From: an uncultured Candidatus Actinomarina sp. | Lineage (GTDB): Bacteria; Actinomycetota; Acidimicrobiia; Actinomarinales; Actinomarinaceae | Length of the DNA: 64,000 nt | Direction: 5' to 3' | NCBI GenBank assembly: GCA_902593795.1 | Contig: CACJJR010000001.1 | Location: 196,647 to 260,646, forward strand | Shown: positions 4,158-54,613 of the stretch, piece by piece | How positions within the stretch are numbered: the first letter of the stretch is position 1 | How the letters are laid out: each line of letters starts with the position of its first letter | Made by a program: the position numbers and the translations under genes | Notes under the pieces: model-generated | Database searches by the model: none | What the model was told of the DNA's origin: nothing | Seen by the model: the letters and a program-made list of their open reading frames with translations, nothing else

Positions 4158-5279
4158 TTATGAACTAAACAAATCATTAATTACCAAACTTACGTACTCT
4201 GCAAAGACTGACTTCGCATCATTCCAAGATATCTCGTAAATTAATTCAAAAGCTTCCTCAAAGTCTTTACCAGAAGCCATTACTGCATACATGTGCATAG
4301 CTGAATCAGCACCGGCCATTGCATTCATAGCTTCTACAGTTAAGAATCCGATAGAGTATCCTAGTACATAATCAGGATTCCTTATACACACACCTGGAAT
4401 GCTGTTGTTGTAGTAATTTAAAATTGTAGACGGTGAGTATTCATTATAAGGCGCTTTTATATGCCTACCAGTTACTTGCGATGATCTTATATCTAAGTAT
4501 TCTTCATATGTTCCTACTCCAAGTGATAAACCAGCTGCATGAGCAATCCCTTCATTCAACCAGCATGGAGAAGCATCATTAGCACTTTGTTGTGGATTTC
4601 TTGCATTTCCAATCCATTGAGCAGCAACAACTGAATGAGTTACTTCATGAATATGAAGAGGTCCATATCTATATGCATCTATTGAATCTGCGTTATTGAT
4701 ACCAAATGTACCTACACCAAAATGTGGAGGTCTTTGATATATTCCTGAGTTAGCTCCACTGCAGACTCCATCGCGACATGGCGCTCTAGCCATATCACCT
4801 TCAAATCCTGAACTATTCAATTCATTAATTGCCCAGTCAAGATCTCCATAGTTGTAGAAAAATCCATAATATTTTTCTGGCAGAGAAAAGTTTTGCCAGA
4901 AACTTATACCCTTCTGTATATATTGTTCGTTATCTAAAAAATATAGATCAGTTGAGGGACCAGTATTTAAAATTATTTCAAAAGTTTTATTTTCAAATTT
5001 TATATTTTCATTAGATATTCTCTGATAATCATTCCACGCAAATTGTGGCACATTATTAATATATGTGCTTAATTCTCCAATACTCACATACTCACAATCG
5101 TCACATTTATTTTTTACAATTGTCGTAGTGGTTGTATCTTGAACTGTAGTCGTGGTTGTATCTTGAACAGTGGTAGTTGTATCTATATTGTTTGAACTTG
5201 ATGCCACCTCATTATTGCCATCCTGAGATCCTCCACATGTAAAAAATAAAAGAAAACTTATTATTAAATATTTTTTCAT
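4158..5279 (-). CDS. secreted/lipoprotein zinc metalloprotease with Thr-rich repeat linker
   Basis: N-terminal signal peptide with Cys (LLFFTCGGS), tandem TTTTVQD linker repeats, HExxH motif (HIHEVTHS). Confidence 0.6.
   Translation of the reverse strand: MKKYLIISFLLFFTCGGSQDGNNEVASSSNNIDTTTTVQDTTTTTVQDTTTTTIVKNKCDDCEYVSIGELSTYINNVPQFAWNDYQRISNENIKFENKTFEIILNTGPSTDLYFLDNEQYIQKGISFWQNFSLPEKYYGFFYNYGDLDWAINELNSSGFEGDMARAPCRDGVCSGANSGIYQRPPHFGVGTFGINNADSIDAYRYGPLHIHEVTHSVVAAQWIGNARNPQQSANDASPCWLNEGIAHAAGLSLGVGTYEEYLDIRSSQVTGRHIKAPYNEYSPSTILNYYNNSIPGVCIRNPDYVLGYSIGFLTVEAMNAMAGADSAMHMYAVMASGKDFEEAFELIYEISWNDAKSVFAEYVSLVINDLFSS
5122..5185. repeat. in-frame ~24-nt tandem repeat (about 2.5 copies) encoding the Thr-rich linker of the metalloprotease
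   Basis: ggttgtatcttgaac unit repeated directly in sequence. Confidence 0.5.
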
Positions 5280-5309
5280 ATTTTAATCTTACAGAAGGTT
5301 TTTTAAAAT

Positions 5310-5387
5310 TGGTGGGCCTAGTTAGATTTGAACTAACGACCTCATCCTTATCAGGGATGCGCTCTAACCAGGCTGAGCTATAGGCCC
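5310..5387 (-). tRNA. tRNA-Ile (anticodon GAT)
   Basis: Reverse complement folds as GGGCCTA acceptor, anticodon loop CTGATAA, TTCAAAT T-loop, CCA encoded. Confidence 0.85.
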
Positions 5388-5475
5388 ATATGTCTAATTA
5401 ACATTAGTCTATCAATAGAAATATTTAATTTTTTTTTTCATTTACTGTAATATTCTGTGCATAATATTAATGCGA

Positions 5476-5548
5476 GGGGATGTAGCTCAGCTGGAAGAGC
5501 ACCTGCTTTGCAAGCAGGGGGTCGTGGGTTCAAGTCCCATCATCTCCA
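5476..5548 (+). tRNA. tRNA-Ala (anticodon TGC)
   Basis: GGGGATG acceptor with G3:U70 Ala identity pair, anticodon loop TTTGCAA, T-loop TTCAAGT; CCA not encoded. Confidence 0.85.
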
Positions 5549-5984: not shown

Positions 5985-7447
5985 TGAATTTTTCGAGACC
6001 TGAACAATTACAGGAGCTTGAAAGCAAATCCGAATTTGACCTTTTGATCATTGGCGGTGGGATTGTTGGTTCTGCTGCTTTACAAATGGCTTCATCTAAA
6101 GGCCTAGATTCAATTTTGTTGGAAAAAAATGATTTTGCATCAGGAGCTTCAAGTAGAAGTACAAAACTTTTGCACGGAGGAATAAGATATCTTCCCCAAT
6201 TACAATTTGGTTTAGTTAAAGAAAGTCTCCTAGAGCAAAAAATATTAGTTAAATTGCTTGGAGACCTTTATAAACCTCTAAAACTTCTTGCACCAATATA
6301 TAAAGATGATGGATTTTCAGACCTACCAAAAATATTCCAATTTAATGCTGTCTCTTCAATTGCATTCAAAATTGGATTAACCTTATATGATTTTCTTGGA
6401 TCTAGAGATAAAAACCAAAAACATCTAAATATAGATAAATCTGAAACCAAGAAGCTATTCCCAATATTAAAACAAGAAAAATTAAAAAAAAGCTTTATGT
6501 TTCAAGATGCTCAGACAGATGATGCAAAACTGGTAGTAACCCTGCTAAGAAATGCTGTTGAGATAAATAATGCAAAAGCTATAAACTATATGGAAATAAA
6601 AGATATAACTAAAAGTTCATCAAAATATAAAATTAAAGTTTTAAACACACTAAATAACAGAGATCACACTTTATACGCTACTAATATTATTGCAGCTACT
6701 GGAGTGCATAATTTACCAGGAGAATACAAAGAAAAATCTTCAAAAATTAAATATAGTGGTGGTGCTCATCTTGTTCTTCGAGGAGATCCATTAAAAATTA
6801 ACGGACATGGAATACTCCTTCCAAGAACGGAAGATAATCGAATTATGTTTGTTTTACCTTGGTTTGGGAATACGATTGTTGGAACTACCGATACCGAATC
6901 ATTTTCAGGAACATTAGATAGACCTTTTGCAAACAATCAAGATAAAGAGTATCTAATTAGACATGTTAAAAAATATTTTGACATTGAAGATATAGAGTAC
7001 ATCTCTTCATGGTCGGGCGTAAGGGCGCTAATAGATAATAAGTTAACTTCAACAAAAAATGTTTCAAGAGGTCACTTTTTCAAAAATATCGATGATAAAT
7101 TTATTCAAATTTCTGGAGGGAAATTAACTGGTTTCAGGTTAATAGCAAAAGAGAGCCTCGAATTATTATTTGATAAGAAATTTGACCTAGAGCGTTTAAG
7201 CTTTACAGAAGAAGTTCTTGAGTTATCAAACCAATTTAGTGAAACAGATTTAGAAATATGTTTTCAACACTATTGTATTGCTAAACCATCGGACTATATG
7301 TTAAGAAGAACTCACTTAAGCTGGTTCAATGAAAATGGTGGAAAAAATGAGATTAGAAAGATTATTGGGAAGTTTGAAAATAAAAACATAGAAAAAGAAA
7401 CATTAAAAGAGCTGGATGATGAGGGACTGTTGTATAAAAATAACTAG
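5984..7447 (+). CDS. glpD: FAD-dependent glycerol-3-phosphate dehydrogenase
   Basis: N-terminal GGGIVG FAD fold; blocks matching E. coli GlpD (KLLHGGIRYL; IMFVLPWFG..IVGTTDTE; WSGVRAL). Confidence 0.75.
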   Translation: MNFSRPEQLQELESKSEFDLLIIGGGIVGSAALQMASSKGLDSILLEKNDFASGASSRSTKLLHGGIRYLPQLQFGLVKESLLEQKILVKLLGDLYKPLKLLAPIYKDDGFSDLPKIFQFNAVSSIAFKIGLTLYDFLGSRDKNQKHLNIDKSETKKLFPILKQEKLKKSFMFQDAQTDDAKLVVTLLRNAVEINNAKAINYMEIKDITKSSSKYKIKVLNTLNNRDHTLYATNIIAATGVHNLPGEYKEKSSKIKYSGGAHLVLRGDPLKINGHGILLPRTEDNRIMFVLPWFGNTIVGTTDTESFSGTLDRPFANNQDKEYLIRHVKKYFDIEDIEYISSWSGVRALIDNKLTSTKNVSRGHFFKNIDDKFIQISGGKLTGFRLIAKESLELLFDKKFDLERLSFTEEVLELSNQFSETDLEICFQHYCIAKPSDYMLRRTHLSWFNENGGKNEIRKIIGKFENKNIEKETLKELDDEGLLYKNN

Positions 7448-13870: not shown

Positions 13871-13959
13871 CGGAGGGGGTGGGATTTGAACTCAGGGAGT
13901 CTATAGAGACTCACGACATTTCGAGTGTCGCGCACTAGACCGGACTATGCGACCCCTCC
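13871..13959 (-). tRNA. tRNA-Ser (anticodon CGA)
   Basis: Reverse complement: GGAGGGG acceptor, anticodon loop CTCGAAA, long variable arm, TTCAAAT T-loop. Confidence 0.8.
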
Positions 13960-13979
13960 AGATGTGTATTATTAACATT

Positions 13980-14438
13980 ATGGATTATAAGACTGATGAA
14001 AAAAAGATGAAAGTTGCGCTTGAACAAGCAAATTTAGCTTTTGATAAAAACGAGGTACCTGTTGGCGCAGCAATATTTGATAGCAACAATAATTTGATTT
14101 GTGCAAATCATAATCGTAGAGAAGTTGATAATAACCCAACAGCTCATGCTGAAATACTCGTATTGCAAGAGGCAGCACAAATATTAGGTAGTTGGCGGCT
14201 TGAAAACACAACACTTGCAGTTACGTTGGAACCAGATGCGATGTGTGCTGGTGCAATAGTCATTGCAAGAATAAAGAAACTTATATACGGGGCAGCTAAT
14301 TTAAAAGCCGGTGCAGCATATTCACTTTACAATATTCCACAAGATGCTCGTCTTAACCACCATGTCGATATAAAAGATAATATTCTCTCCCATGAATCCG
14401 AAGCTATATTATCCTCTTTCTTTGACAGCAAGAGATAA
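13980..14438 (+). CDS. tadA: tRNA-specific adenosine-34 deaminase
   Basis: CDA-fold HAE zinc motif and (P-D-A-M-C-A-G-A) second motif; start moved to first ATG clear of the tRNA. Confidence 0.8.
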   Translation: MDYKTDEKKMKVALEQANLAFDKNEVPVGAAIFDSNNNLICANHNRREVDNNPTAHAEILVLQEAAQILGSWRLENTTLAVTLEPDAMCAGAIVIARIKKLIYGAANLKAGAAYSLYNIPQDARLNHHVDIKDNILSHESEAILSSFFDSKR

Positions 14439-14464
14439 CTAAAATAGAATCTCAGGTTTTTTTC

Positions 14465-14553
14465 GGAGGGATCGCATAGTCTGGCCTAGTGCGCACGCTT
14501 GGAAAGCGTGTAAGGGTTTATCCCCTTCGAGGGTTCGAATCCCTCTCCCTCCG
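14465..14553 (+). tRNA. tRNA-Ser (anticodon GGA)
   Basis: GGAGGGA acceptor, anticodon loop TTGGAAA, long variable arm, GAGGG/CCCTC T-stem. Confidence 0.85.
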
Positions 14554-14574
14554 CAAAAAAAAAAGAAGACATCT

Positions 14575-14660
14575 GGAGGGATGGCCGAGCGGACGAAGGC
14601 GATAGTCTTGAAAACTATTGTATGTATTCCATACCGTGGGTTCGAATCCCACTCCCTCCG
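14575..14660 (+). tRNA. tRNA-Ser (anticodon TGA)
   Basis: GGAGGGA acceptor, anticodon loop CTTGAAA, long variable arm. Confidence 0.85.
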
Positions 14661-14667
14661 CTGACTT

Positions 14668-14757
14668 GGAGAGGTGACTGAGTGGCCTAAAGTGCTCGCC
14701 TGCTAAGCGAGTGGGGAAGAAATTCCCTCGAGGGTTCGAATCCCTCCCTCTCCGCCA
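14668..14757 (+). tRNA. tRNA-Ser (anticodon GCT)
   Basis: GGAGAGG acceptor, anticodon loop CTGCTAA, long variable arm, CCA encoded. Confidence 0.85.
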
Positions 14758-14758
14758 T

Positions 14759-14832
14759 GCGCCTGTAGCTTAACTGGATAGAGCATCTGATTACGGATCA
14801 GAAGGTTGGGGGTTCGACTCCCTCCAGGCGTG
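14759..14832 (+). tRNA. tRNA-Arg (anticodon ACG)
   Basis: GCGCCTG acceptor, anticodon loop TTACGGA, 5-nt variable loop; begins 1 nt after the previous tRNA. Confidence 0.85.
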
Positions 14833-27580: not shown

Positions 27581-28429
27581 CTAAACATCTCTCTCTTCAT
27601 TTAAGAAATCTTCGATTTGTTGAACAAGATTGTCTTCTGAAAAATTATCTTCAATACTGACGTCTGCTTCTTCCAGCTTAGAAACATACTCAGCTAGATC
27701 TTCTGAATTTTCCATTGCTTTGTTAATCTTTAACTCAAACTGCTGGCCTTCACTTTGGATTCCAGAGTCATCGATTTCGATTTTTAAAATTTCTGATGTT
27801 TTATTAAGAAGTGCACTCATCCCCTTAGGGTATCCGCCACTACTTAAATAATGAGGTACTGCTGCCCACAGCCCAGCAGTCTCAATACCACTATCTCTCA
27901 AATTTTGACCGACAACACTTGTTATGCCTGTAGGTCCAGAATAATTAGGATTAAGCACATTGTGTCTTGAATGGAAAGTTGGATCACCGCTCACACCGAA
28001 TATTGGAACAGGCAATGTATGTGCTACCTGTCCAAAGAAAGCACCTAATGTTACAGCTTTTTTTACTCCAAGCTCGAGGAGAGTATCTGAAATATTTCTT
28101 GAATAATCTTTCCATTTCATGGAAGGTTCCTCACCAAAGACAAGTATTAAGTCACTTTTTAACTTGTAGTCTTCGATTGAGTAAAAGGAAGTTTGAGGCC
28201 AATGAAAGTTTCTTTCTCCAAAGTCTTTAACCTCTACAACGGGCCTTCTCATTTGATAGTTGTAATAAGAATCTGAATCTAGTTCAGCAAATGGTTCTAC
28301 ATCATACGTACTACTCAAATTTTCTACGCATCCTGTTGCAGTGTTTCCAGCATCGCTCCAACCCTCGAATGCAAGAACTGCAACGGGTTCTGATAAAAGT
28401 GGCTTTCTATACCAAACTACATCTTCCAT
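27581..28429 (-). CDS. PAC2-family (proteasome-assembly-chaperone-like) protein
   Basis: 282 aa, N-terminal LAFEGWSDAGN pattern typical of actinobacterial PAC2 proteins. Confidence 0.45.
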   Translation of the reverse strand: MEDVVWYRKPLLSEPVAVLAFEGWSDAGNTATGCVENLSSTYDVEPFAELDSDSYYNYQMRRPVVEVKDFGERNFHWPQTSFYSIEDYKLKSDLILVFGEEPSMKWKDYSRNISDTLLELGVKKAVTLGAFFGQVAHTLPVPIFGVSGDPTFHSRHNVLNPNYSGPTGITSVVGQNLRDSGIETAGLWAAVPHYLSSGGYPKGMSALLNKTSEILKIEIDDSGIQSEGQQFELKINKAMENSEDLAEYVSKLEEADVSIEDNFSEDNLVQQIEDFLNEERDV

Positions 28430-28472: not shown

Positions 28473-30554
28473 CTAGAGTTTTCTTGATGAGTTAACTACT
28501 ACAGAGATACTTGAAAGGGCCATTGCTAGAGCAGCTAAATTAGGTGTAATGATGCCTATTACTGCAATGGGGATCATCAAAGTGTTGTAAATAAATGCTA
28601 GAAAGAGGTTTTGGTATATTCTAAGTTTTGATTTTTTAGATAATTTGAATATTTTATTTAAAGTTTCTAAACCACCCTTGTGAATTAAAATATCACCAGA
28701 AACTTGTGCTATTTGACTACTTGAAGATGTAGTTACTCCAACATCTGCTTGCTTGATAGAAGGAGAATCATTAATACCATCACCGATAAAAATAACTTGA
28801 TTGCTTTCTTGCTTGTTTTTTATAAACTCTAATTTTTCTTCAGGATTTTTGCCAAAGTGATATTCATCTACGTTAAGATTGTCAGCAAATTTTTTAACAT
28901 TAATTTCTTTATCACCTGAGAGAATTATTATTTCTTTTTCTAACTTAAGTTCATTCAAAAAGTCTGTTGAAACGGAGGATTCCTCTTCTAAGTAAATAAT
29001 ATAGACTTTCTCATTGATTGTAACCTTTAGAGAGGACTCTTTCGAGTCAACATTATTTTGAATCTTAATATGTTGTCCTTCAACCACTCCTTCTATACCA
29101 ACACCTGATTGTTCTTTAACGTCTTGAGCTGAAAGCAGTGTTATTTCTCTTATCTCGGATTGATAAACTATACTTTTTGCAATCGGATGTTGTGAGAAAT
29201 TCTCAACACTTGCAACCCACTGTAAGAAAATTTCTTCAGACATAATCTCATCTGGCATTTCTATTTTTGTAATTTTAAAAATTCCTGACGAAAGAGTTCC
29301 TGTTTTATCAAAGATCAGTGTATTAATGTCACCAAACTTTTGTAGAATATCAAAATTCTTAAAAAGAAAGCCACGTGCTTTACTTTTTGTTGCTGTTTTA
29401 AATAAAACAATAGGTGTTGCAAGTCCTAATGCGCATGGACATGCAATTACAAGAACAGCAATTGAATTTTTCAATGCTTCTATCAATACAACATCTTGAA
29501 TAAAGTATTTGTATATAAACGTAATAAGACTTATAAATAAGACGCTAGGTACAAAAAATTGTGTAATTTTGTCTAGAGATTTTTGAATTTCTGGCTTTGT
29601 ACCTTGAGCCTTTCTTATCAAATCTTCAATGATGTTATATGTTGATTTTTGGTAAGATTCTTTGACCTCAACTTCGAGACTTCCTTGCAAATTTATACTT
29701 CCCCCTACTACTGCATCACCAATGTTCTTTGGTAAAGGAATTGACTCTCCAGTTAAGAGGCTTTCGTCAACTGTTGTTTCTCCCTTGATAACTTTTCCAT
29801 CAACAGGAATAATTTCACCTGCTAAAACAATAAATACATCTTTGGTTTGCACATCCTTCGTGTGTATTTCGATATTTTCATCATTTCTCTTAACAATTAG
29901 TGTTTTAGGCATTCTGCTCTTAATGGATTCAGAAGTTCTTACAGATTCTTCAATAACCCTGTCTTCAATTGACTTTCCAATAAGTAAAAATGAAATAATA
30001 AATGCTCCGGTATCAAGAAACATTTTATTTTCTCCTGCTGATGAGACCAACTCAGAAGGCAAAATAGAAATTAGTAGAGAGCTCAAGCTCCCTAAAGAGA
30101 TTAAAGTGTCCATGTTAAAATCAAGATTTTTAATTTTTTTATAAGCAGAAATATGAAAATTTCTTCCTAGAAAGAGTACAACAATAAAACCAACAATATA
30201 GGCTACGGTGTCAAACCCTGCTTCAAAAAGATACTTCAGCGATAAAGTCATTATCAAAGAAGTTATGGGTAAAAGTAACTTAAGTTTTATTTTTTTATCT
30301 ACAACTTCATCTGATGCTTCTTTGGCTTTGTAACCAATTTTATTTACAGATTTTATTATTTCTTCTAAGTTATCATTCTCGTCTGTAACATCAACAATTG
30401 CAGATTTTAGAGGAAAGCTTACAGATGCATCTAGAACATTTTTATTTTTAGAAAGAATTCGCTCAATACGTGCTGCACAGGCAGCACAGGTCATTCCATC
30501 AATATCTAGATTTATTGATTTAACTTGACTGGACAACTGTGTAACCTTGCTCAT
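28473..30554 (-). CDS. copA: copper-translocating P1B-type ATPase
   Basis: N-terminal HMA (GMTCAACAARIE), CPC in TM6, DKTGT phosphorylation motif, GDGINDSP. Confidence 0.9.
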   Translation of the reverse strand: MSKVTQLSSQVKSINLDIDGMTCAACAARIERILSKNKNVLDASVSFPLKSAIVDVTDENDNLEEIIKSVNKIGYKAKEASDEVVDKKIKLKLLLPITSLIMTLSLKYLFEAGFDTVAYIVGFIVVLFLGRNFHISAYKKIKNLDFNMDTLISLGSLSSLLISILPSELVSSAGENKMFLDTGAFIISFLLIGKSIEDRVIEESVRTSESIKSRMPKTLIVKRNDENIEIHTKDVQTKDVFIVLAGEIIPVDGKVIKGETTVDESLLTGESIPLPKNIGDAVVGGSINLQGSLEVEVKESYQKSTYNIIEDLIRKAQGTKPEIQKSLDKITQFFVPSVLFISLITFIYKYFIQDVVLIEALKNSIAVLVIACPCALGLATPIVLFKTATKSKARGFLFKNFDILQKFGDINTLIFDKTGTLSSGIFKITKIEMPDEIMSEEIFLQWVASVENFSQHPIAKSIVYQSEIREITLLSAQDVKEQSGVGIEGVVEGQHIKIQNNVDSKESSLKVTINEKVYIIYLEEESSVSTDFLNELKLEKEIIILSGDKEINVKKFADNLNVDEYHFGKNPEEKLEFIKNKQESNQVIFIGDGINDSPSIKQADVGVTTSSSSQIAQVSGDILIHKGGLETLNKIFKLSKKSKLRIYQNLFLAFIYNTLMIPIAVIGIITPNLAALAMALSSISVVVNSSRKL

Positions 30555-30729
30555 CTAGCATCTCAGATACAAGAGATAAGTTTAAGTCACTAGTAGATTT
30601 TACTGCTACTGATTTTTGTTCAATATCTACAGCCACACTTACTACAGATTCAATATTGCCAACAGTTGATTCAATAGTTTCTTTACAATGTCCACAACTA
30701 ATTTCAGGTACGGTGAATTTTGTTTCCAT
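30520..30729 (-). CDS. copZ: copper chaperone CopZ (HMA domain)
   Basis: 69 aa, MxCxHC-type metal site (SCGHCKETIE). Confidence 0.8.
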   Translation of the reverse strand: METKFTVPEISCGHCKETIESTVGNIESVVSVAVDIEQKSVAVKSTSDLNLSLVSEMLDEQGYTVVQSS

Positions 30730-30758
30730 ATGTTTATTTTAATAATGTTAGGTTATAA

Positions 30759-30788
30759 AATAAGCCCCTTTTTAACAAGGGGCTTATT
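30759..30788. promoter_or_regulatory. perfect 12-bp-arm palindrome AATAAGCCCCTT-N6-AAGGGGCTTATT between small CCCH gene and copZ (operator or terminator hairpin)
   Basis: Reverse-complement arms read directly; C4/G4 tracts resemble CsoR-type operators; also foldable as a hairpin. Confidence 0.4.
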
Positions 30789-30790
30789 GA

Positions 30791-30828
30791 AAATCTCTTG
30801 GGGGGGAGATTTCGTTAAGGGGGGTTAA
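30791..30828. promoter_or_regulatory. two tandem G-tract motifs flanked by short inverted repeats (AAATCTCTT-G7-AGATTT; TTAA-G6-TTAA)
   Basis: G6/G7 runs are conspicuous in this AT-rich DNA; architecture resembles RcnR/CsoR type-1 sites. Confidence 0.35.
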
Positions 30829-30831
30829 AAC

Positions 30832-31026
30832 TTAAGCAGTTTCTTGGAGAATTCTGCCTCTTACCCTTGGGTATTTCACTGGAGCGTGATTGAAGCAATG
30901 ATCTCTTTTGTTGTAAATACTAAGTTGAGTGCTGCAAGATTCATCTTTGCATACTCTGCCCTGGTCAAAACTTTTTGATGGCCTAATACCACCTTTAATT
31001 TGACTAGCTTTTAATCCGTCTGTCAT
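30832..31026 (-). CDS. small CCCH zinc-ribbon-like protein (paralog of 54245..54448), unknown family
   Basis: 64 aa; C-x4-C-x12-C-x2-H, shared HAPV.YPRVRG C-terminus and ASQ.K.G.R.SK N-terminus with the dnaK-upstream paralog. Confidence 0.5.
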   Translation of the reverse strand: MTDGLKASQIKGGIRPSKSFDQGRVCKDESCSTQLSIYNKRDHCFNHAPVKYPRVRGRILQETA

Positions 31027-31045
31027 TTTTATCCTTTATATACTT

Positions 31046-31061
31046 TGTGAATATATTCACA
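31046..31061. promoter_or_regulatory. perfect CRP/FNR-type palindrome TGTGA-ATATAT-TCACA
   Basis: Exact match to TGTGA-N6-TCACA consensus, centred ~27 nt upstream of the small CCCH gene start codon. Confidence 0.45.
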
Positions 31062-31091
31062 AGCTTAACACTTTTATTTTAGATGACAACC

Positions 31092-32990
31092 TTATTTTGA
31101 CAAGTTTTTTTGAGACAAAAATGCTTTATCATTCCATTTCCTGCCCAAAAAATTTTTTACCATATATTCTGCAGGTATAGTCCCTCCAGGCTTGAGAATT
31201 TTGTCTTTATATTCAACCCCAACTTTATTTGAAAGAACTCCCTCATTTTCGAACCTACTAAATAGATCATCACCAATAATTTCAGCCCAGATATAACCAT
31301 AATAGGCTGCATCATAGCCACCGAGAAGATGTCCAAATGCTGCTAAGTGGTTTATGTCGTCAGGATAAGCTATGGTAGTTACTTTTTGAGAAGTTTGCTC
31401 AACTTCAATTAGTGAATCGTTAAAGTTTTCACCATGTAAGTGTTGGTCAGCTAGGCCAAATGAAACTTGACGAAGTGTGAGTAAGCTGACACCGATATTT
31501 TTTGATTTATTTAATTTTGCACATATCTGCTCAGATAATGATTCCCCAGTTTCAATATGTTTTGATATTCTTGTTAAGCACTCTACTTTCCATACCCAGT
31601 GTTCCATAATCTGACTGGGTGCTTCAACAAAATCCCATTCACAGTTTGCACCAACAAATCTTGTGTATTTTGATTTACCAATTCCATTATGTAAAACATG
31701 ACCAAATTCGTGAAAAAGAGTTTCAACTTCGTCAAAGGTCATTAATCCATCTCCTGTATTTGGGTTTGGAAAGTTTGCAACCATTGAACATACGGGAAGC
31801 TCCTGTCTTTCTGTTCCACCGGAAGATATATCAAAGACTGCTGCATGTGTAAATTTTCCATCTCTTGGATGAAGGTCTAAATAAAAATAAGCTAATTGTG
31901 GACCATCTTTTTCCCATAGTGACCAAAGTTCTACATCATCATGCCAAGCATTATGGTTTGATTCACGCTTTATTTTTAAATCAAAAACTTCTTCACAGAC
32001 TTTAAACATTTCATTTTTAACATCATGAATATAAAAATATTTTTTTAACTCGCTATTTTCAACGTTGCTTACTTTGGCTCTTTCTGCCGAAACAAAGTAT
32101 CTAATATCCCATGGAGCAATGTCATTAATTTTAATATTATCTATGACAAGCTCATTCTTTTCTTTATCTGCAGCTTTTTGTAATTTTGGAATTAACTCTT
32201 CATACATGGATGAAACATTTGACGGTCCTTTGGCCATTCTATTTTGCAATCTATATTCTGACCATGTATTAAAACCAAACAAATTTGCTTTTTCATTTCT
32301 CAATACCACCGCTTCTTCAAGAATTGGACTGTTTTCTTTAACGGATCGATTATTAAAGGCTTTCCAAACAACTTCTCTTGTTTTTCGCACAGAACAGTTT
32401 TCTGAAACTGCATTTATATCAGGGTAAGCCATTGTTATAACAAAGTTGCTTCCTTCTTTTCTAAGATTTTGAAGTTCGTTTTGACTCAATCCCTTTAGCT
32501 CATTTTCTAAAAACATAAGTTCAGTTTTATCTTTCGCTATATTTTCTGAGAAGGAAATCCCTAATTCAATAAGTTTCTTTTCAATTTCTGTGAGGCGTTC
32601 TTTTTTTTCTGCTGATAGTCCATGACCAGCATCTTTAAAATCTAGTCCTAAATCCTTATGAAATGAAAGATCTTCTTCATCTAAATTTAAAATATCAATA
32701 TCATTGTATTTTTCATAAAGACCTGAATCGTTGAATATTTCAAGTGCAAAATTTTGAATTTTGGAATCTGCTTCGTTACCAAAATCTCTGATTTTTTCAT
32801 CTGGGTGCACATCTCCAAGAAACGCGACTCTTCCAGAAAGATCATAAATCATACTTTCCATATCATTAAAATTATTTAATTTAACTTCTGATGATGCCTT
32901 AAGATCTTTAATTAACTCTTTACATTCAGAAATAGTATTATCTAAATCTTTTCGTAAACTTTCTACTGTTACGTCTGAATAGTTAAACAC
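31092..32990 (-). CDS. M3-family zinc metallopeptidase (oligopeptidase/Dcp-like)
   Basis: HEFGHVLH HExxH motif with downstream Glu, ~630 aa. Confidence 0.8.
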   Translation of the reverse strand: MFNYSDVTVESLRKDLDNTISECKELIKDLKASSEVKLNNFNDMESMIYDLSGRVAFLGDVHPDEKIRDFGNEADSKIQNFALEIFNDSGLYEKYNDIDILNLDEEDLSFHKDLGLDFKDAGHGLSAEKKERLTEIEKKLIELGISFSENIAKDKTELMFLENELKGLSQNELQNLRKEGSNFVITMAYPDINAVSENCSVRKTREVVWKAFNNRSVKENSPILEEAVVLRNEKANLFGFNTWSEYRLQNRMAKGPSNVSSMYEELIPKLQKAADKEKNELVIDNIKINDIAPWDIRYFVSAERAKVSNVENSELKKYFYIHDVKNEMFKVCEEVFDLKIKRESNHNAWHDDVELWSLWEKDGPQLAYFYLDLHPRDGKFTHAAVFDISSGGTERQELPVCSMVANFPNPNTGDGLMTFDEVETLFHEFGHVLHNGIGKSKYTRFVGANCEWDFVEAPSQIMEHWVWKVECLTRISKHIETGESLSEQICAKLNKSKNIGVSLLTLRQVSFGLADQHLHGENFNDSLIEVEQTSQKVTTIAYPDDINHLAAFGHLLGGYDAAYYGYIWAEIIGDDLFSRFENEGVLSNKVGVEYKDKILKPGGTIPAEYMVKNFLGRKWNDKAFLSQKNLSK

Positions 32991-50680: not shown

Positions 50681-51070
50681 TTAGAAGGTTTTTCTTATTG
50701 TTTGATTATTTTTTTTAACGATTTCGTTCTTATAACTTTTATGAATTTCTTTTGCTTTATTTTTAGAATCAATTTTTTCACTTGAGATTTCATTTTCTAA
50801 AGAAATAATTTTTTCTTGTAGTTCTTCAATCTTATCTCTCATCTCATAAATTATTTTTATACCATCTAAGTTGATTCCTCTTTGAGACAGATTTTGAATT
50901 TGTATCAACTTATCTATATCTTCTTGAGAATAACGTCTTGTTCCCCCTCCAGTCCTGAACGGTTTTATTAACCCTTTTTCTTCATAAGTCCGAATTGTTT
51001 GTTGATGTATGCCCGAGAGTGTAGAGGCTACGGATATAAAGTATATTGCGTTTGACTCTTCACTACTCAT
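50681..51070 (-). CDS. hspR: MerR-family heat-shock repressor HspR
   Basis: MerR HTH (ISVASTLSGIHQQTIRTYE), terminal gene of dnaK-grpE-dnaJ operon. Confidence 0.75.
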   Translation of the reverse strand: MSSEESNAIYFISVASTLSGIHQQTIRTYEEKGLIKPFRTGGGTRRYSQEDIDKLIQIQNLSQRGINLDGIKIIYEMRDKIEELQEKIISLENEISSEKIDSKNKAKEIHKSYKNEIVKKNNQTIRKTF

Positions 51071-51932
51071 CTAAATACTTTCTTGGAGAATCACCAGATT
51101 CAAACTGTTCTTTAAATTTTTCCAGATGTTTTTTTGCAGACCTTGATAAGTTCACAGGGGGAGTAATAAATACCTTCACATATAAATCACCGGACCTTCT
51201 TCCTTGAGGAGCTATACCCTCACCTCGAATTTTAAATGTTTTTCCACTAGGTGTTCCAGATGGAATTTTTAATGTGACAGATTTTGTTAATGTGGGAATC
51301 TTAATGCTCGCACCTAGGGCAGCTTCAGTAAAGAGTAGGGGGATTTCTAAAATTAAGTCCATATTGCTTCTTTTAAAGAACTTATGAGGCTGAACGGAAA
51401 CTTGTACCAATAGATCTCCATCAGGTGCCCCAGCAGCTCCAGGACCTCCACGGCCCCTAAGCCTAATTACACTTCCATTATCTACACCTGCTGGAACTTT
51501 TATTTTTATCGATTCGTTTTCTATAGGTAGTACTACTTCAATACCAGAGGCAGCTTCAGCAAATGATATAGTGATATTAGTTTGGTATGTTTGACCTTTT
51601 CTTCTTCCGCCAAAACCAAAAATATCACCAAGGTTTTCAAAGATATCTCCAAAGTCATCAACAGTAAAACCCTGACTAGTGAAACCTCCAAAACCTGAAC
51701 TTCCCATTGCTCTGATTTGATCATATTCTTGACGCTTCCTATCATCGCCTAATACAGCGTGTGCTTCAGAAATTTCTTTAAACTTTTTTTCTGCTTCAAT
51801 GTTTTCTGGGTTTAAATCTGGATGATTTTCCCTTGCTAATTTTTTGTAAGCTTTTTTTATTTCATCTGAGGTTGCATTTTGGGGTACGCCAAGTGTGGCA
51901 TAGAAATTTTTATCTAGCCAATCTCTACTCAC
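51063..51932 (-). CDS. dnaJ: J-domain co-chaperone DnaJ, class B (no zinc-finger domain)
   Basis: J-domain HPD motif, G/F-rich linker, C-terminal beta domains; zero Cys residues. Confidence 0.8.
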   Translation of the reverse strand: MSRDWLDKNFYATLGVPQNATSDEIKKAYKKLARENHPDLNPENIEAEKKFKEISEAHAVLGDDRKRQEYDQIRAMGSSGFGGFTSQGFTVDDFGDIFENLGDIFGFGGRRKGQTYQTNITISFAEAASGIEVVLPIENESIKIKVPAGVDNGSVIRLRGRGGPGAAGAPDGDLLVQVSVQPHKFFKRSNMDLILEIPLLFTEAALGASIKIPTLTKSVTLKIPSGTPSGKTFKIRGEGIAPQGRRSGDLYVKVFITPPVNLSRSAKKHLEKFKEQFESGDSPRKYLDE

Positions 51933-52413
51933 TTTTAACCTTAACCATGGCAGGTCGAATTAGGTTCCCTTGAAATTGATACCCTTTACGTAAAACTACA
52001 TCAATTTTTTGTATATTACCTTCACCAGTATGTTCAACAGCCTCATGTAAAGCAGGGTCAAAATCCTCTCCAGCATCTCCAATTTCTGTGACTTGAAGAC
52101 TTTCTAAAACTGACGACAATAGGCTGCTAAATGTTTCTACTTCTTTGGCAATTTTATCTTGAGACATAGCCATTTCAAAATTGTCTATAAGAGGAAATAA
52201 AGTATTTACAAAATACGCAATAGAGGCTGAGCCAATATTTTCCTTCTCTTTTTCAGATCTTTTTTTATAATTATCAAAGTCAGCAGCAAGTCTTAAGTAG
52301 TCGTCTTTTATTTTTTCGTACTGAGAAAGAGGGACGCTTGATTCATCAGCTTCTATATTTTCATTTTCAGAAGAATCATCAGGTTCTTCAGTATGTTCCT
52401 CTTCGTTACTCAT
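51925..52413 (-). CDS. grpE: nucleotide exchange factor GrpE
   Basis: Acidic N-terminus, coiled-coil then GrpE C-terminal beta domain; overlaps dnaK and dnaJ. Confidence 0.8.
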
Positions 52414-54214
52414 CTTCTATGACTTCACCTTCTACCACGTCATCGGATTCACTTGAAGACGGATCAGGAGTATCATTTTGTGTCTCTGAATATAACTTTT
52501 CAGCAAATGATTGACTAGCTTTAGAAAGCTCTTCAATAGCAACCTTGAGATCATTAACTTCGTTATCTTCATTTTCTAAGAGTTTCTTTAGATTTTCATT
52601 TGCATCAGTAATTGATTTAATCTCATCATCAGTTGCTTTATCTTTGTTGTCTTCCAACATTTTTTCTGTTGAAGTAACCATTCCTTCAGCCATATTTCTT
52701 GTCTCGACAAGATCTTTCTTTTTTGCATCTTCATTTGCATGTTGTTCTGCATCTTTTATCATTCGGTCTATCTCATCGTCTTCTAAAGCAGTTCCACCAG
52801 TAATTGTTATTGCTTGCTCCTTACCAGTGCCAAGGTCTTTAGCATTTACATTGACAATTCCATTTGCATCAATATCAAAAGTTACCTCTATTTGAGGTGT
52901 ACCAGCCATTGCTGCAGGAATATCGGTTAATGTGAATCTACCCAAAGATTTGTTACCAGAGGCCATATCTCTTTCACCTTGCAAGATGTGTATTTCAACC
53001 TGAGTTTGATTGTTTTCAGCAGTACTAAATACTTCTGACCTCTTAGTTGGAATAGTAGTATTTCTTTCGATCATCTTTGTCATGATTCCACCTTTTGTTT
53101 CAACACCAAGTGTAAGTGGAGTGACATCAAGTAAAAGAACATCCTTTACATCACCTTTAAGAACGCCAGCTTGTATGGCAGCACCAGAAGCAACCACTTC
53201 GTCTGGGTTGACACCTTTATGAGGATCTTTACCAGTTAAAGCTTTAACAAGCTCTTGCACTGATGGCATTCTTGTAGAACCACCAACTAATATTATGTGA
53301 TTTATATCTGAAAATTTCATTCCAGCATCAGACAAAGCATTTTCAACAGGTGCTTTTGTACGCTCTACTAAATCAGCTGTAATTTTTTCAAATTCAGACC
53401 TACTTAACTTTTCTAATAAATGTTGGGGACCAGCATCGTTAGCAGTAATGAAAGGTAAATTAATTTCTGTTTCACTAGTCGAAGAAAGTTCAATTTTTGC
53501 TTTCTCTGCACCTTCCTGAATTCTCTGGATAGCCATTTTGTCTTTTGATAAATCAATACCTGTTGATGATTTAAATTTATCAATTAACCAGTCCATAACT
53601 CTCTGATCCCAGTCATCACCACCTAGTTTTGAATCACCAGAGGTTGACTTTACCTCAAAGACTCCTTCAGAAATTTCCAGAATAGAAACATCGAATGTAC
53701 CACCACCCAGATCAAATACTAAAATTTTTTGATCTTGATTATTTTCTAAACCATACGCAAGTGATGCAGCTGTAGGTTCGTTAATGATTCTTAATACGTT
53801 TAATCCAGCTATCTGACCTGCTTCTTTAGTCGCTTGTCTTTCTGCGTCATTAAAATATGCAGGCACAGTAATAACAGCTTCAGTAACGTCATCTCCTAAG
53901 TATGCTTCAGCATCCCTTTTTAATTTTTGAAGTATTCTTGCTGATATTTCTTGTGGAGTATAATCTTTCCCTTCAAAGCTTTCTTTCCAATCAGTTCCGA
54001 TGTGTCTTTTAATTGATCTTATGGTGTTATCAGGATTTGTTATTGCTTGTCTTTTTGCAAGCTCTCCAACCAGTACTTCTTCAGACTTGAAAGCAACTAT
54101 GGATGGAGTCGTCCTATTTCCCTCTGCATTCGCAATTACAGTTGGTTCGCCGCCTTCTAATACTGCAACAACACTATTTGTTGTTCCTAAATCAATTCCT
54201 ACAGCTTTTCCCAT
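52406..54214 (-). CDS. dnaK: molecular chaperone DnaK (Hsp70)
   Basis: [29 protein letters not shown] Hsp70 signatures. Confidence 0.95.
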
Positions 54215-54448: not shown

Positions 54449-54613
54449 TTTTTACCTTTCTAATCTATACATTATTATATATAAAATCTATGTAAATTTA
54501 CTTAGATTTGTATTAAATATAACATAATACAGATATTAGGCAAAAAAAAATAAAAAAAATTTTAAAAAATGGCTTTATTTAACCTCCTATCATTTAACTG
54601 ATATTATTGAAGA

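Follow-up and report, generated by a model that had tools for sequence, protein, structure and literature searches.

Among the small metal-cluster stress factors of Actinobacteria are Ruc, the Wbl proteins and RbpA, whose gene is a SigR target. In RbpA of Streptomyces, the tails are disordered and zinc is bound at a CHCC site (PMC3675491). Ruc (Rv0991c) of Mycobacterium tuberculosis, a largely disordered, zinc-binding protein that interacts with DnaK, is under SigH induction and HrcA repression, which act at overlapping sites (PMC7448276), and some Wbl genes are controlled by SigH, for example whcE in Corynebacterium glutamicum (PMC3489674). Oceans, soils and wastewater all harbour abundant Acidimicrobiia, Candidatus Actinomarina among them, and the regulation of these bacteria has hardly been studied. 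Here we describe a protein family that is a candidate for the missing small stress factor of this class, with a role that could compare to those of Wbl, RbpA and Ruc in other Actinobacteria. The analysis started from a 64-kb stretch of DNA of an uncultured Candidatus Actinomarina (hereafter the window; G+C content ~33%), which carries two paralogous genes of the family on its minus strand: P1 (30832..31026), encoding a basic, 64-residue, Cys3His putative zinc-knuckle protein, is linked to copZA, and P2 (54245..54448), encoding 67 residues, is linked to dnaK.

The two paralogues and their family

The original prediction, made from the sequence of the window, held that these open reading frames encode related proteins (~55% identical) of unknown family, placed before a copper operon and a heat-shock operon. 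By BLASTP, the two are 52% identical over 62 residues (E=2e-25), and the shared features are as described: the C-x4-C-x12-C-x2-H pattern, HAPVxYPRVRG and an N-terminal ASQ[IV]KxG[IV]RxSK. The proposed placement also stands: P1 lies 102 nucleotides (nt) upstream of copZ, on the same strand as copZ and copA, and P2 lies exactly 30 nt upstream of dnaK, on the same strand as dnaK, grpE, dnaJ and hspR, which follow in that order. Both are genuine genes under strong purifying selection; the ratio of nonsynonymous to synonymous polymorphism (pN/pS), relative to the window copy, is 0.037 for P1, calculated from 50 distinct orthologous sequences, and 0.19 for P2. P1 has an isoelectric point (pI) of 9.7 and a net charge of +6, and its orthologues in Candidatus Actinomarina, where the nearest relatives of both proteins are found, are 89-100% identical. 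Word-index homologue searches returned Actinomarina relatives only, many of them frameshifted.

An exhaustive HMMER profile search extended the family to 937 cluster representatives (50% identity clusters) at E<=1e-3, of which 93 reach E<=1e-10. The typical member has ~65 residues (most among the 150 matches listed have 60-80), a median pI of 10.1-10.2 and a net charge of +8 to +9, and the family signature is R-x-C-x4-C-x4-S-x-YN-x4-C-x2-H-x5-PRxRG. In an alignment of 68 diverse members (P2 numbering), R24, C31, Y38, N39, C44 and H47 are invariant, and C26, S36, R54, R56 and G57 are at least 90% conserved; since these residues include C26, C31, C44 and H47, all four putative zinc ligands are conserved. 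Raising the E-value cut-off to 10 brought P1 and P2 no match in Pfam or NCBIfam, no PDB chain sequence matched P2, and the family profile found nothing significant in Pfam, NCBIfam or PDB. By sequence, then, P1 and P2 belong to a large, previously undescribed family of small, very basic Cys3His putative zinc-knuckle proteins. The AlphaFold2 model of P2 built on the family alignment is confident, with a mean predicted local distance difference test score of 84.5, and its sole secondary structure is a two-residue beta-bridge pair; this near-absence of secondary structure is as expected for a predicted metal-held knuckle with extended arms.

Longer variants of ~105-150 residues (nine sequences, among them L130 at 5001..5345) have an extra C-terminal CxxC...H...C...LCE module, which from its residues could be a second metal site. 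A 1316-residue repeat protein (P0098) was rejected as a spurious low-complexity match.

Genomes were scanned, one per GTDB species, with a hand-built codon-level pattern of the conserved residues, which gave at least 120 loci (L-numbers denote loci; counts below are among the 120 listed). The motif is present in all but one of them, and the reading frame that bears it has ~60-110 codons in the great majority. Record titles among the matches listed are mostly Acidimicrobiia, Acidimicrobiales, Actinomarina or Microthrix, or just Actinomycetes or Actinomycetota, and a few listed metagenome-assembled genomes carry other phylum labels or none. Six genomes (those of L053, L037, L074, L124, L114 and L057) are labelled Methanobacteriota, Acidobacteriota or Kiloniellales, yet have the gene order typical of Acidimicrobiia or Actinomarina. 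Such labels likely reflect binning contamination, and a binning error is the probable explanation for L053 (NYXO01000052.1), which has a close P1 homologue adjoining copZA. Within the genomes sampled, the family does not extend beyond the class Acidimicrobiia except for relatives in phages, and among the matches listed its neighbourhoods are recurrent and conserved.

Paralogy is common, since several genomes contribute two loci (L030 and L044; L043 and L110; L024 and L115). L044 (QBZE01000003.1, oriented position 6037..6240) is a third, divergent Actinomarinales paralogue (MSIEAHRSWKGRKPKTYPAGRTCAFEQCEIVLSTYNKKKFCFNHAPKTYPRVRGYITL...), in a different, unannotated context and without a palindromic operator. 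On phage-like contigs, a family gene is flanked by genes for replication initiation and for Erf-like annealing (L127), and a two-domain variant adjoins a portal gene (L130). Of the 68 family members, 33 match PHROG 10853, a family of phage proteins of unknown function (best E=2.5e-5); P2, the sole window protein scanned, fell below threshold, and a tblastn search of isolated phage genomes with two family members gave no match.

Promoters, operators and genomic settings

SigH/SigR-type promoters (GGAA[CT]-N16-19-[CG]GTT; consensus from PMC3489674) were sought within 160 nt upstream of the family genes. They were found before 56 of 115 genes (49%), whereas control windows taken at the same loci had them in 11 of 1150 cases (1%; p ~1e-80). 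In the high-GC copZA-linked orthologues this promoter lies 60-68 nt upstream of the start codon, and in the ...PRTRGKKIA subfamily its -10 element is ~10 nt from the ATG. The ...EFTEEF (E-type) subfamily (L005, L035, L089, L114 and L052) has 10-bp TTAGCACTAA/TTAGTGCTAA repeats, direct or inverted, that resemble half-sites of CIRCE (controlling inverted repeat of chaperone expression); in L089 they lie inside the spacer of the SigH-like promoter. Canonical CIRCE was absent upstream of family genes at up to four mismatches. By promoter and context, the family genes belong to a heat and thiol-oxidative stress regulon, and their induction by such stress is predicted.

Neighbourhoods were compared by clustering the flanking open reading frames of the listed loci and scanning representatives against Pfam, and four settings recur. 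The commonest has, in this order, a gene for a sigma factor of the extracytoplasmic function (ECF) type, a zf-HC2 anti-sigma factor gene, the family gene, a Zincin_2 (PF10103) metallopeptidase gene and tilS; the sigma factor gene is upstream in 30 loci and Zincin_2 downstream in 38. The P1 lineage forms another setting, and a smaller group has an acyl-CoA synthetase gene, the family gene and an HTH_17/B12-binding regulator gene in order. The fourth, in which proC is divergent and the family gene precedes dnaK, grpE, dnaJ and hspR, is seen in nine Actinomarinales loci only. Genes for M3 peptidases are near the family gene in ~29 loci overall, and about two-thirds of family genes neighbour a zinc metallopeptidase gene. 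The link to stress operons that the original prediction drew from two genes is therefore wider than it supposed, taking in SigH/SigR-type promoters and sigH-rshA-like pairs along with copZA and dnaK. Its paired copZA and dnaK placement has two limits: copZA is a variable part of a larger block, and the dnaK placement is restricted to Actinomarinales.

In the window, the P1 block is entirely on the minus strand. It starts with the gene of an M3 zinc metallopeptidase (31092..32990; PF01432), the most conserved upstream neighbour in the lineage, and continues past P1 with copZ, encoding an HMA-domain copper chaperone (30520..30729; PF00403), copA, encoding a P1B-type copper ATPase (28473..30554; Pfam HMA, E1-E2_ATPase and Hydrolase), and a closing PAC2-family gene (27581..28429; PF09754). 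The M3 peptidase gene is upstream of the family gene on the same strand in 24 loci, at just 35-50% identity, and cop genes are downstream on the same strand in ~20, with the neighbours otherwise oriented in five more; at least 19 loci of the lineage are linked to copZA. These neighbours are only 30-50% identical to their window counterparts, which argues that the linkage is old. A gene for a MerR/CueR-like protein lies between the family gene and copZ in five loci, and copZA is absent from the block in L051, L060 and L065. PAC2, of a proteasome assembly chaperone-like family, follows the family gene directly in L051 and L060, and it comes after copZ in L037 and after copA in the window; the stable block therefore consists of M3 peptidase, family gene and PAC2, with copZA as a frequent variable insert, which suggests that copZA was inserted into an older block. 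Because copZA is variable here and a CueR-like gene precedes copZ in five relatives, a dedicated copper-regulator role for the P1-lineage protein is unlikely.

The genes downstream of P2, also on the minus strand, are dnaK (52406..54214; Pfam HSP70), grpE (51925..52413; Pfam GrpE), a dnaJ-like gene (51063..51932; Pfam DnaJ and DnaJ_C) and hspR of the MerR family (50681..51070; Pfam MerR_1), so that the operon encodes its own repressor, HspR. All nine Actinomarinales loci have 17-34 nt between P2 and dnaK, a search for a terminator in this gap of the window found none, and P2 probably forms the first cistron of the dnaK operon. The DnaJ of the window has 289 residues, with J and C-terminal domains and without the CXXCXGXG zinc-finger domain; the syntenic DnaJ in the more distant Actinomarinales loci L001-L004 has 359 residues and carries PF00684. 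In the window lineage, the DnaJ of this operon is CbpA-like.

No ECF promoter was found at P1 or P2 in the window; both have sigma-70-like promoters instead. That of P1 (31062..31089, minus strand) was read from the sequence as a -35 TTGTCA (31089..31084), a 16-nt spacer and a -10 TAAGCT (31067..31062), although a promoter consensus scan preferred a neighbouring pair at 31103..31076. A like pair (TTGCAT or TTGCAG, 17 nt, TAAnCT) occurs in L030, L041 and L053, and a weaker -35 TTGATT with a 16-nt spacer and TAAGCT in L085. The promoter of P2 and the dnaK operon (54516..54543, minus strand) has a -35 TTGCCT, a 16-nt spacer and an extended -10 TGtTATATT (TTGCAT...TATATT in orthologous loci).

Each promoter is accompanied by a palindrome. 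The P1-box (31044..31063) is a 20-bp near-palindrome, CTTGTGA-ATATAT-TCACAAA in the minus-strand reading, one mismatch short of the perfect operator form CTTGTGA-N6-TCACAAG and with a perfect TGTGA-N6-TCACA core. It abuts the -10 hexamer TAAGCT, as it does the like promoters of L030, L041 and L053, and overlaps the -10 and the likely transcription start. It forms 20 consecutive invariant columns in seven Actinomarinales loci despite diverged flanks and has no other near-match within the window. In metagenomes, 60 of 121 exact matches are directly upstream of P1 orthologues; the rest come from unrelated organisms, and a wider P1-box regulon was rejected on that ground. The P2-box (54487..54506; TCTAAGT-AAATTT-ACATAGA) lies 6-9 nt downstream of the extended -10. 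Its consensus, ATCTAAGT-N6-ACTTAGAT, is conserved in all orthologous loci (L019, L021, L034, L050 and L077, with a 7-nt spacer in L001-L004), and in 740 kb of low-GC loci it was found at P2 only. The positions of the two boxes over promoters imply repression, and we regard them as predicted operators: two precisely bounded sites through which copZA and dnaK are probably controlled in a genome that is among the smallest of free-living organisms. The canonical HspR-associated inverted repeat (HAIR), CTTGAGT-N7-ACTCAAG, is absent near P2 and dnaK. The P2-box (TCTAAGT-N6/7-ACTTAGA) has the AGT-N-ACT core in common with the HspR site but not the outer bases nor, in most cases, the spacing.

Two hairpins, both read from the minus strand, lie between P1 and copZ: an AAATCTC/GAGATTT stem (30791..30812) and a terminator-like stem, AAGCCCCTT/AAGGGGCTT, followed by a T run (30755..30785). 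A compensatory T-A to A-T change preserves the latter in L033 and L126, and it is absent from L041, L030, L053 and L085; because of this uneven occurrence among Actinomarinales, co-transcription of P1 with copZA is likely partial and lineage-dependent. The terminator-like hairpin could be an attenuator of read-through into copZA. C-rich tracts (CCCCCC and CCCCCCC) lie 5' of the two hairpins in the P1-copZ gap (30755..30826).

The leaders of P1 orthologues in 12 high-GC loci share a GGCCC...AGGAGGGCC hairpin that would sequester the Shine-Dalgarno sequence and a conserved TTTAC(C) loop element. RNAalifold supports the sequestering hairpin only, an Rfam scan of the 5' leaders from 18 high-GC loci matched no family, and the hairpin may serve in the control of translation, for instance as a thermometer. 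Upstream of the SigH-type promoter, ~170 nt before the family gene and directly after the stop codon of the M3 peptidase gene, seven loci (L037, L124, L073, L074, L015, L060 and L013) have a second ECF-like motif, GGAAC-N17-CGTCT. The dyad TTGAGTGCACAGTCAAGG and its variants are conserved upstream of the family gene in L013, L073, L099, L105 and L120, the loci with a MerR/CueR-like gene, and may be the operator of the adjacent MerR-family regulator. Elsewhere in the window, Rfam matches only tRNA genes, a cluster of five (13871..14832) and a divergent pair (5313..5548).

Possible functions

We tentatively favour, at somewhat below even odds (a probability of about 0.45), a family of stress-induced factors that associate with nucleic acid or with RNA polymerase by means of a zinc knuckle. 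Zinc would hold the Cys3His knuckle together, and the basic N-terminal arm and the PRVRG tail would contact nucleic acid or the RNA polymerase-promoter complex, so that the protein would act as a small, stress-induced, transcription-associated factor whose Cys3His site may double as a thiol or metal switch. In the high-GC relatives, transcription starts from SigH/SigR-type ECF promoters, the gene usually lying just after a sigH-rshA-like pair. The P1 lineage has its place in the conserved block of M3 peptidase, family gene, optional CueR-like gene, copZ, copA and PAC2, and P2 is an Actinomarinales-specific duplicate inserted as the first cistron ahead of dnaK, grpE, dnaJ and hspR. In the streamlined Actinomarina, both genes have sigma-70-like promoters instead, each overlapped by its own invariant 20-bp palindrome, which implies repressor control. 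Several observations point to a nucleic-acid or transcription role: the high positive charge together with several paralogues per genome, the location of phage copies in DNA-metabolism modules, and the fact that the sole sequence-level resemblances are to DNA-binding C-x4-C...C-x2-H fingers. The conservation or invariance of the non-ligand R, Y, N and PRxRG residues, in turn, argues for one specific conserved partner.

Other results weigh against this assignment. No common palindrome or motif was found upstream of family genes, so no family-wide sequence-specific DNA binding is indicated. Foldseek with the P2 model gave no PDB match and none that was significant among viral models (BFVD). Aligned with hhalign against 24 SBP proteins, the family matches all four ligands, with a probability of 1.15% (P=0.046), and against the M. 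tuberculosis RbpA sequence, only 2 columns aligned, with no detectable homology. Membership of a stress regulon would suit a chaperone equally well, and the zinc metallopeptidases beside about two-thirds of the family genes are left unaccounted for.

The chaperone alternative would make these proteins Ruc-like redox-regulated holdases: zinc would keep the protein inactive, and oxidation of the cysteines would free the metal, leaving an unfolded protein that binds clients and passes them to DnaK, DnaJ and GrpE. The regulation of the family does parallel that of M. tuberculosis Ruc (PMC7448276), given how frequent SigH-type promoters are and that, in the E-type subfamily, the SigH-like promoter is overlapped by TTAGCACTAA repeats resembling CIRCE half-sites; P2 also leads the dnaK operon, and Zincin_2, M3 peptidase and PAC2 are neighbours suited to proteostasis. 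However, a Cys3His knuckle without a long disordered C-terminal tail is not a four-Cys zinc ribbon, conserved non-ligand surface residues and a very high pI favour a specific partner over promiscuous clients, and phage copies in replication modules are hard to account for, all of which leaves a holdase unlikely. An RNA-binding or ribosome-associated stress protein, that is, a small basic zinc-knuckle RNA chaperone or a ribosome-bound factor, would fit the stress-type promoters and a size, pI and extended predicted shape like those of zinc-binding ribosomal proteins and nucleocapsid-type knuckles; yet no ribosomal protein model in Pfam or NCBIfam matched, none of the listed loci is in a ribosomal protein operon, and we consider this very unlikely. 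Least credible, and improbable to a high degree, is a zinc or copper chaperone or buffer serving the neighbouring metallopeptidases or CopA. The Cys3His site could bind Cu(I), and the frequent Zincin_2 and M3 peptidase neighbours and the copZA linkage of the P1 lineage are what such a role would predict, but a single metal site per 65 residues makes a poor buffer, CopZ is already a chaperone, three loci lack copZA from the block, and the high positive charge and the phage homologues would go unexplained.

The operators invite a further explanation, in which P1 and P2 are autoregulatory one-finger repressors. P1 would bind the P1-box as a CopY-like dimer, to be released when Cu(I) from CopZ displaces its zinc, and P2 would act on the P2-box and co-control the dnaK operon. 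Each paralogue does have its own invariant 7-6-7 palindrome over the -10/+1 region, and among Actinomarinales-like DNA the exact P1-box occurs only before P1, as the P2-box does only before P2. The P1-copZ-copA order mirrors copY-copZ-copA of Enterococcus hirae, the Actinomarina cop locus has no other regulator gene, and SBP-domain factors, which have a similar finger, are copper-responsive in algae and plants. On the other hand, the high-GC orthologues have ECF promoters without such a palindrome, and the Actinomarinales paralogue L044 also has none; the P2-box can be adequately read as a diverged HspR (HAIR-like) site, hspR being in the operon; the P1-box matches the CRP/GlxR-type site TGTGA-N6-TCACA perfectly; and a 64-residue protein without helices in its model would be unusual for dimeric recognition of a palindrome. 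We think such repressors quite unlikely. A related idea is doubtful to the same degree: the family would be a new class of bacterial single-knuckle transcription regulators with a fold akin to SBP finger 1, whose Cys3His site directly senses Cu(I) or thiol oxidants, with P1 a copper-responsive autorepressor of a P1-copZ-copA operon through the P1-box, P2 a redox- or heat-responsive repressor of the dnaK operon through the P2-box, and the module borrowed by phages for reprogramming the transcription of their hosts.

Comparison with described families

What is new here is a family of 937 clusters that lies outside all domain libraries and shows a statistical tie to the SigH/heat-shock regulon, to copper loci and to proteostasis loci. 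The closest pattern is that of the SBP domain (PF03110; for example PDB 8j49), whose zinc finger 1 has a Cys3His site with the ligand order C-x4-C...Y-[HN]...C-x2-H and a basic stretch, as in the family; it was also the best PDB profile match of the family, although not a significant one (E=0.27). SBP domains differ in a C-x16-C spacing, against C-x12-C here, in a second, Cys2HisCys site and in a length of ~76 residues, and they are eukaryotic and nuclear. SBP membership was rejected on the single Cys3His site, the absence of a Pfam match and the hhalign probability of 1.15%; as far as the sequences go, the resemblance is at the level of pattern only. Sub-threshold Pfam matches among the 68 members (CxC6, PF18721, in 20; EsV_1_7_cys, PF19114, in 7; Zf_WRKY19, PF24906, in 4; best E 0.006-0.09) fall below gathering thresholds and are to eukaryotic, viral or transposon-associated repeats that appear to have a similar Cys/His spacing.

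CopY, at the head of the copYZAB cluster of E. hirae, offers a parallel in arrangement: the gene of a zinc-binding protein heads a copZ-copA cluster, and a palindromic operator overlaps its promoter. CopY has 145 residues, a winged-helix domain and a CxCx4CxC site, and its box is TACAnnTGTA. Membership of the CopY/BlaI type was rejected: no Pfam match was obtained, the model has no helices, the P1-box has the form CTTGTGA-N6-TCACAAG, and the sequences are unrelated. Zinc-ribbon ribosomal proteins (bL31, bL32, bL33, bL36, bS14 and bS18), which the original prediction had already doubted, are likewise not the answer: searches of Pfam and NCBIfam up to E=10 gave no match, and no listed locus has ribosomal neighbours.

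Nearer in niche are the three actinobacterial groups with which we began. Ruc is alike in being small, zinc-binding and largely unstructured, in its SigH and HrcA control and in its genomic and physical links to DnaK, to which the promoters, the CIRCE-like repeats and the P2-dnaK linkage correspond. It differs in its four-Cys zinc ribbon and long disordered C-terminal tail and has no sequence similarity to the family; with a C-x4-C-x12-C-x2-H pattern, only 7-20 residues after the histidine and no zinc-ribbon Pfam match, membership was rejected. RbpA combines a CHCC site in a beta-barrel core with a basic linker and, at its C-terminus, a domain for sigma interaction, whereas the family has another ligand order and no sigma-interaction helices. 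Many members begin M-[AS]-[DE]-x-[LV]-[KR]-G-x-[RK]-[LI], which we take, anecdotally, to resemble the N-terminal tail of RbpA. Membership in RbpA (PF13397) was nonetheless rejected, since there was no Pfam match and no RbpA chain in the PDB profile search, and the proteins end at PRVRG without helices. The Wbl proteins share a niche with the family, as small Cys-cluster proteins of Actinobacteria that have basic tails and occur as several paralogues in a genome, but hold a [4Fe-4S] cluster with four cysteines (C-xn-C-x2-C-x5-C) and have a G[VI]WGG turn; the original prediction set P1 and P2 apart from WhiB, and rightly so, as they have three cysteines and a histidine and no Pfam match, and G[VI]WGG occurs in no frame of the window. 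If the zinc site does sense, it would be a new minimal metal or redox switch; metal or redox sensing, the role that the original prediction suggested, is a candidate only, and the family itself is an undescribed, lineage-specific group among the small metal-cluster stress factors.

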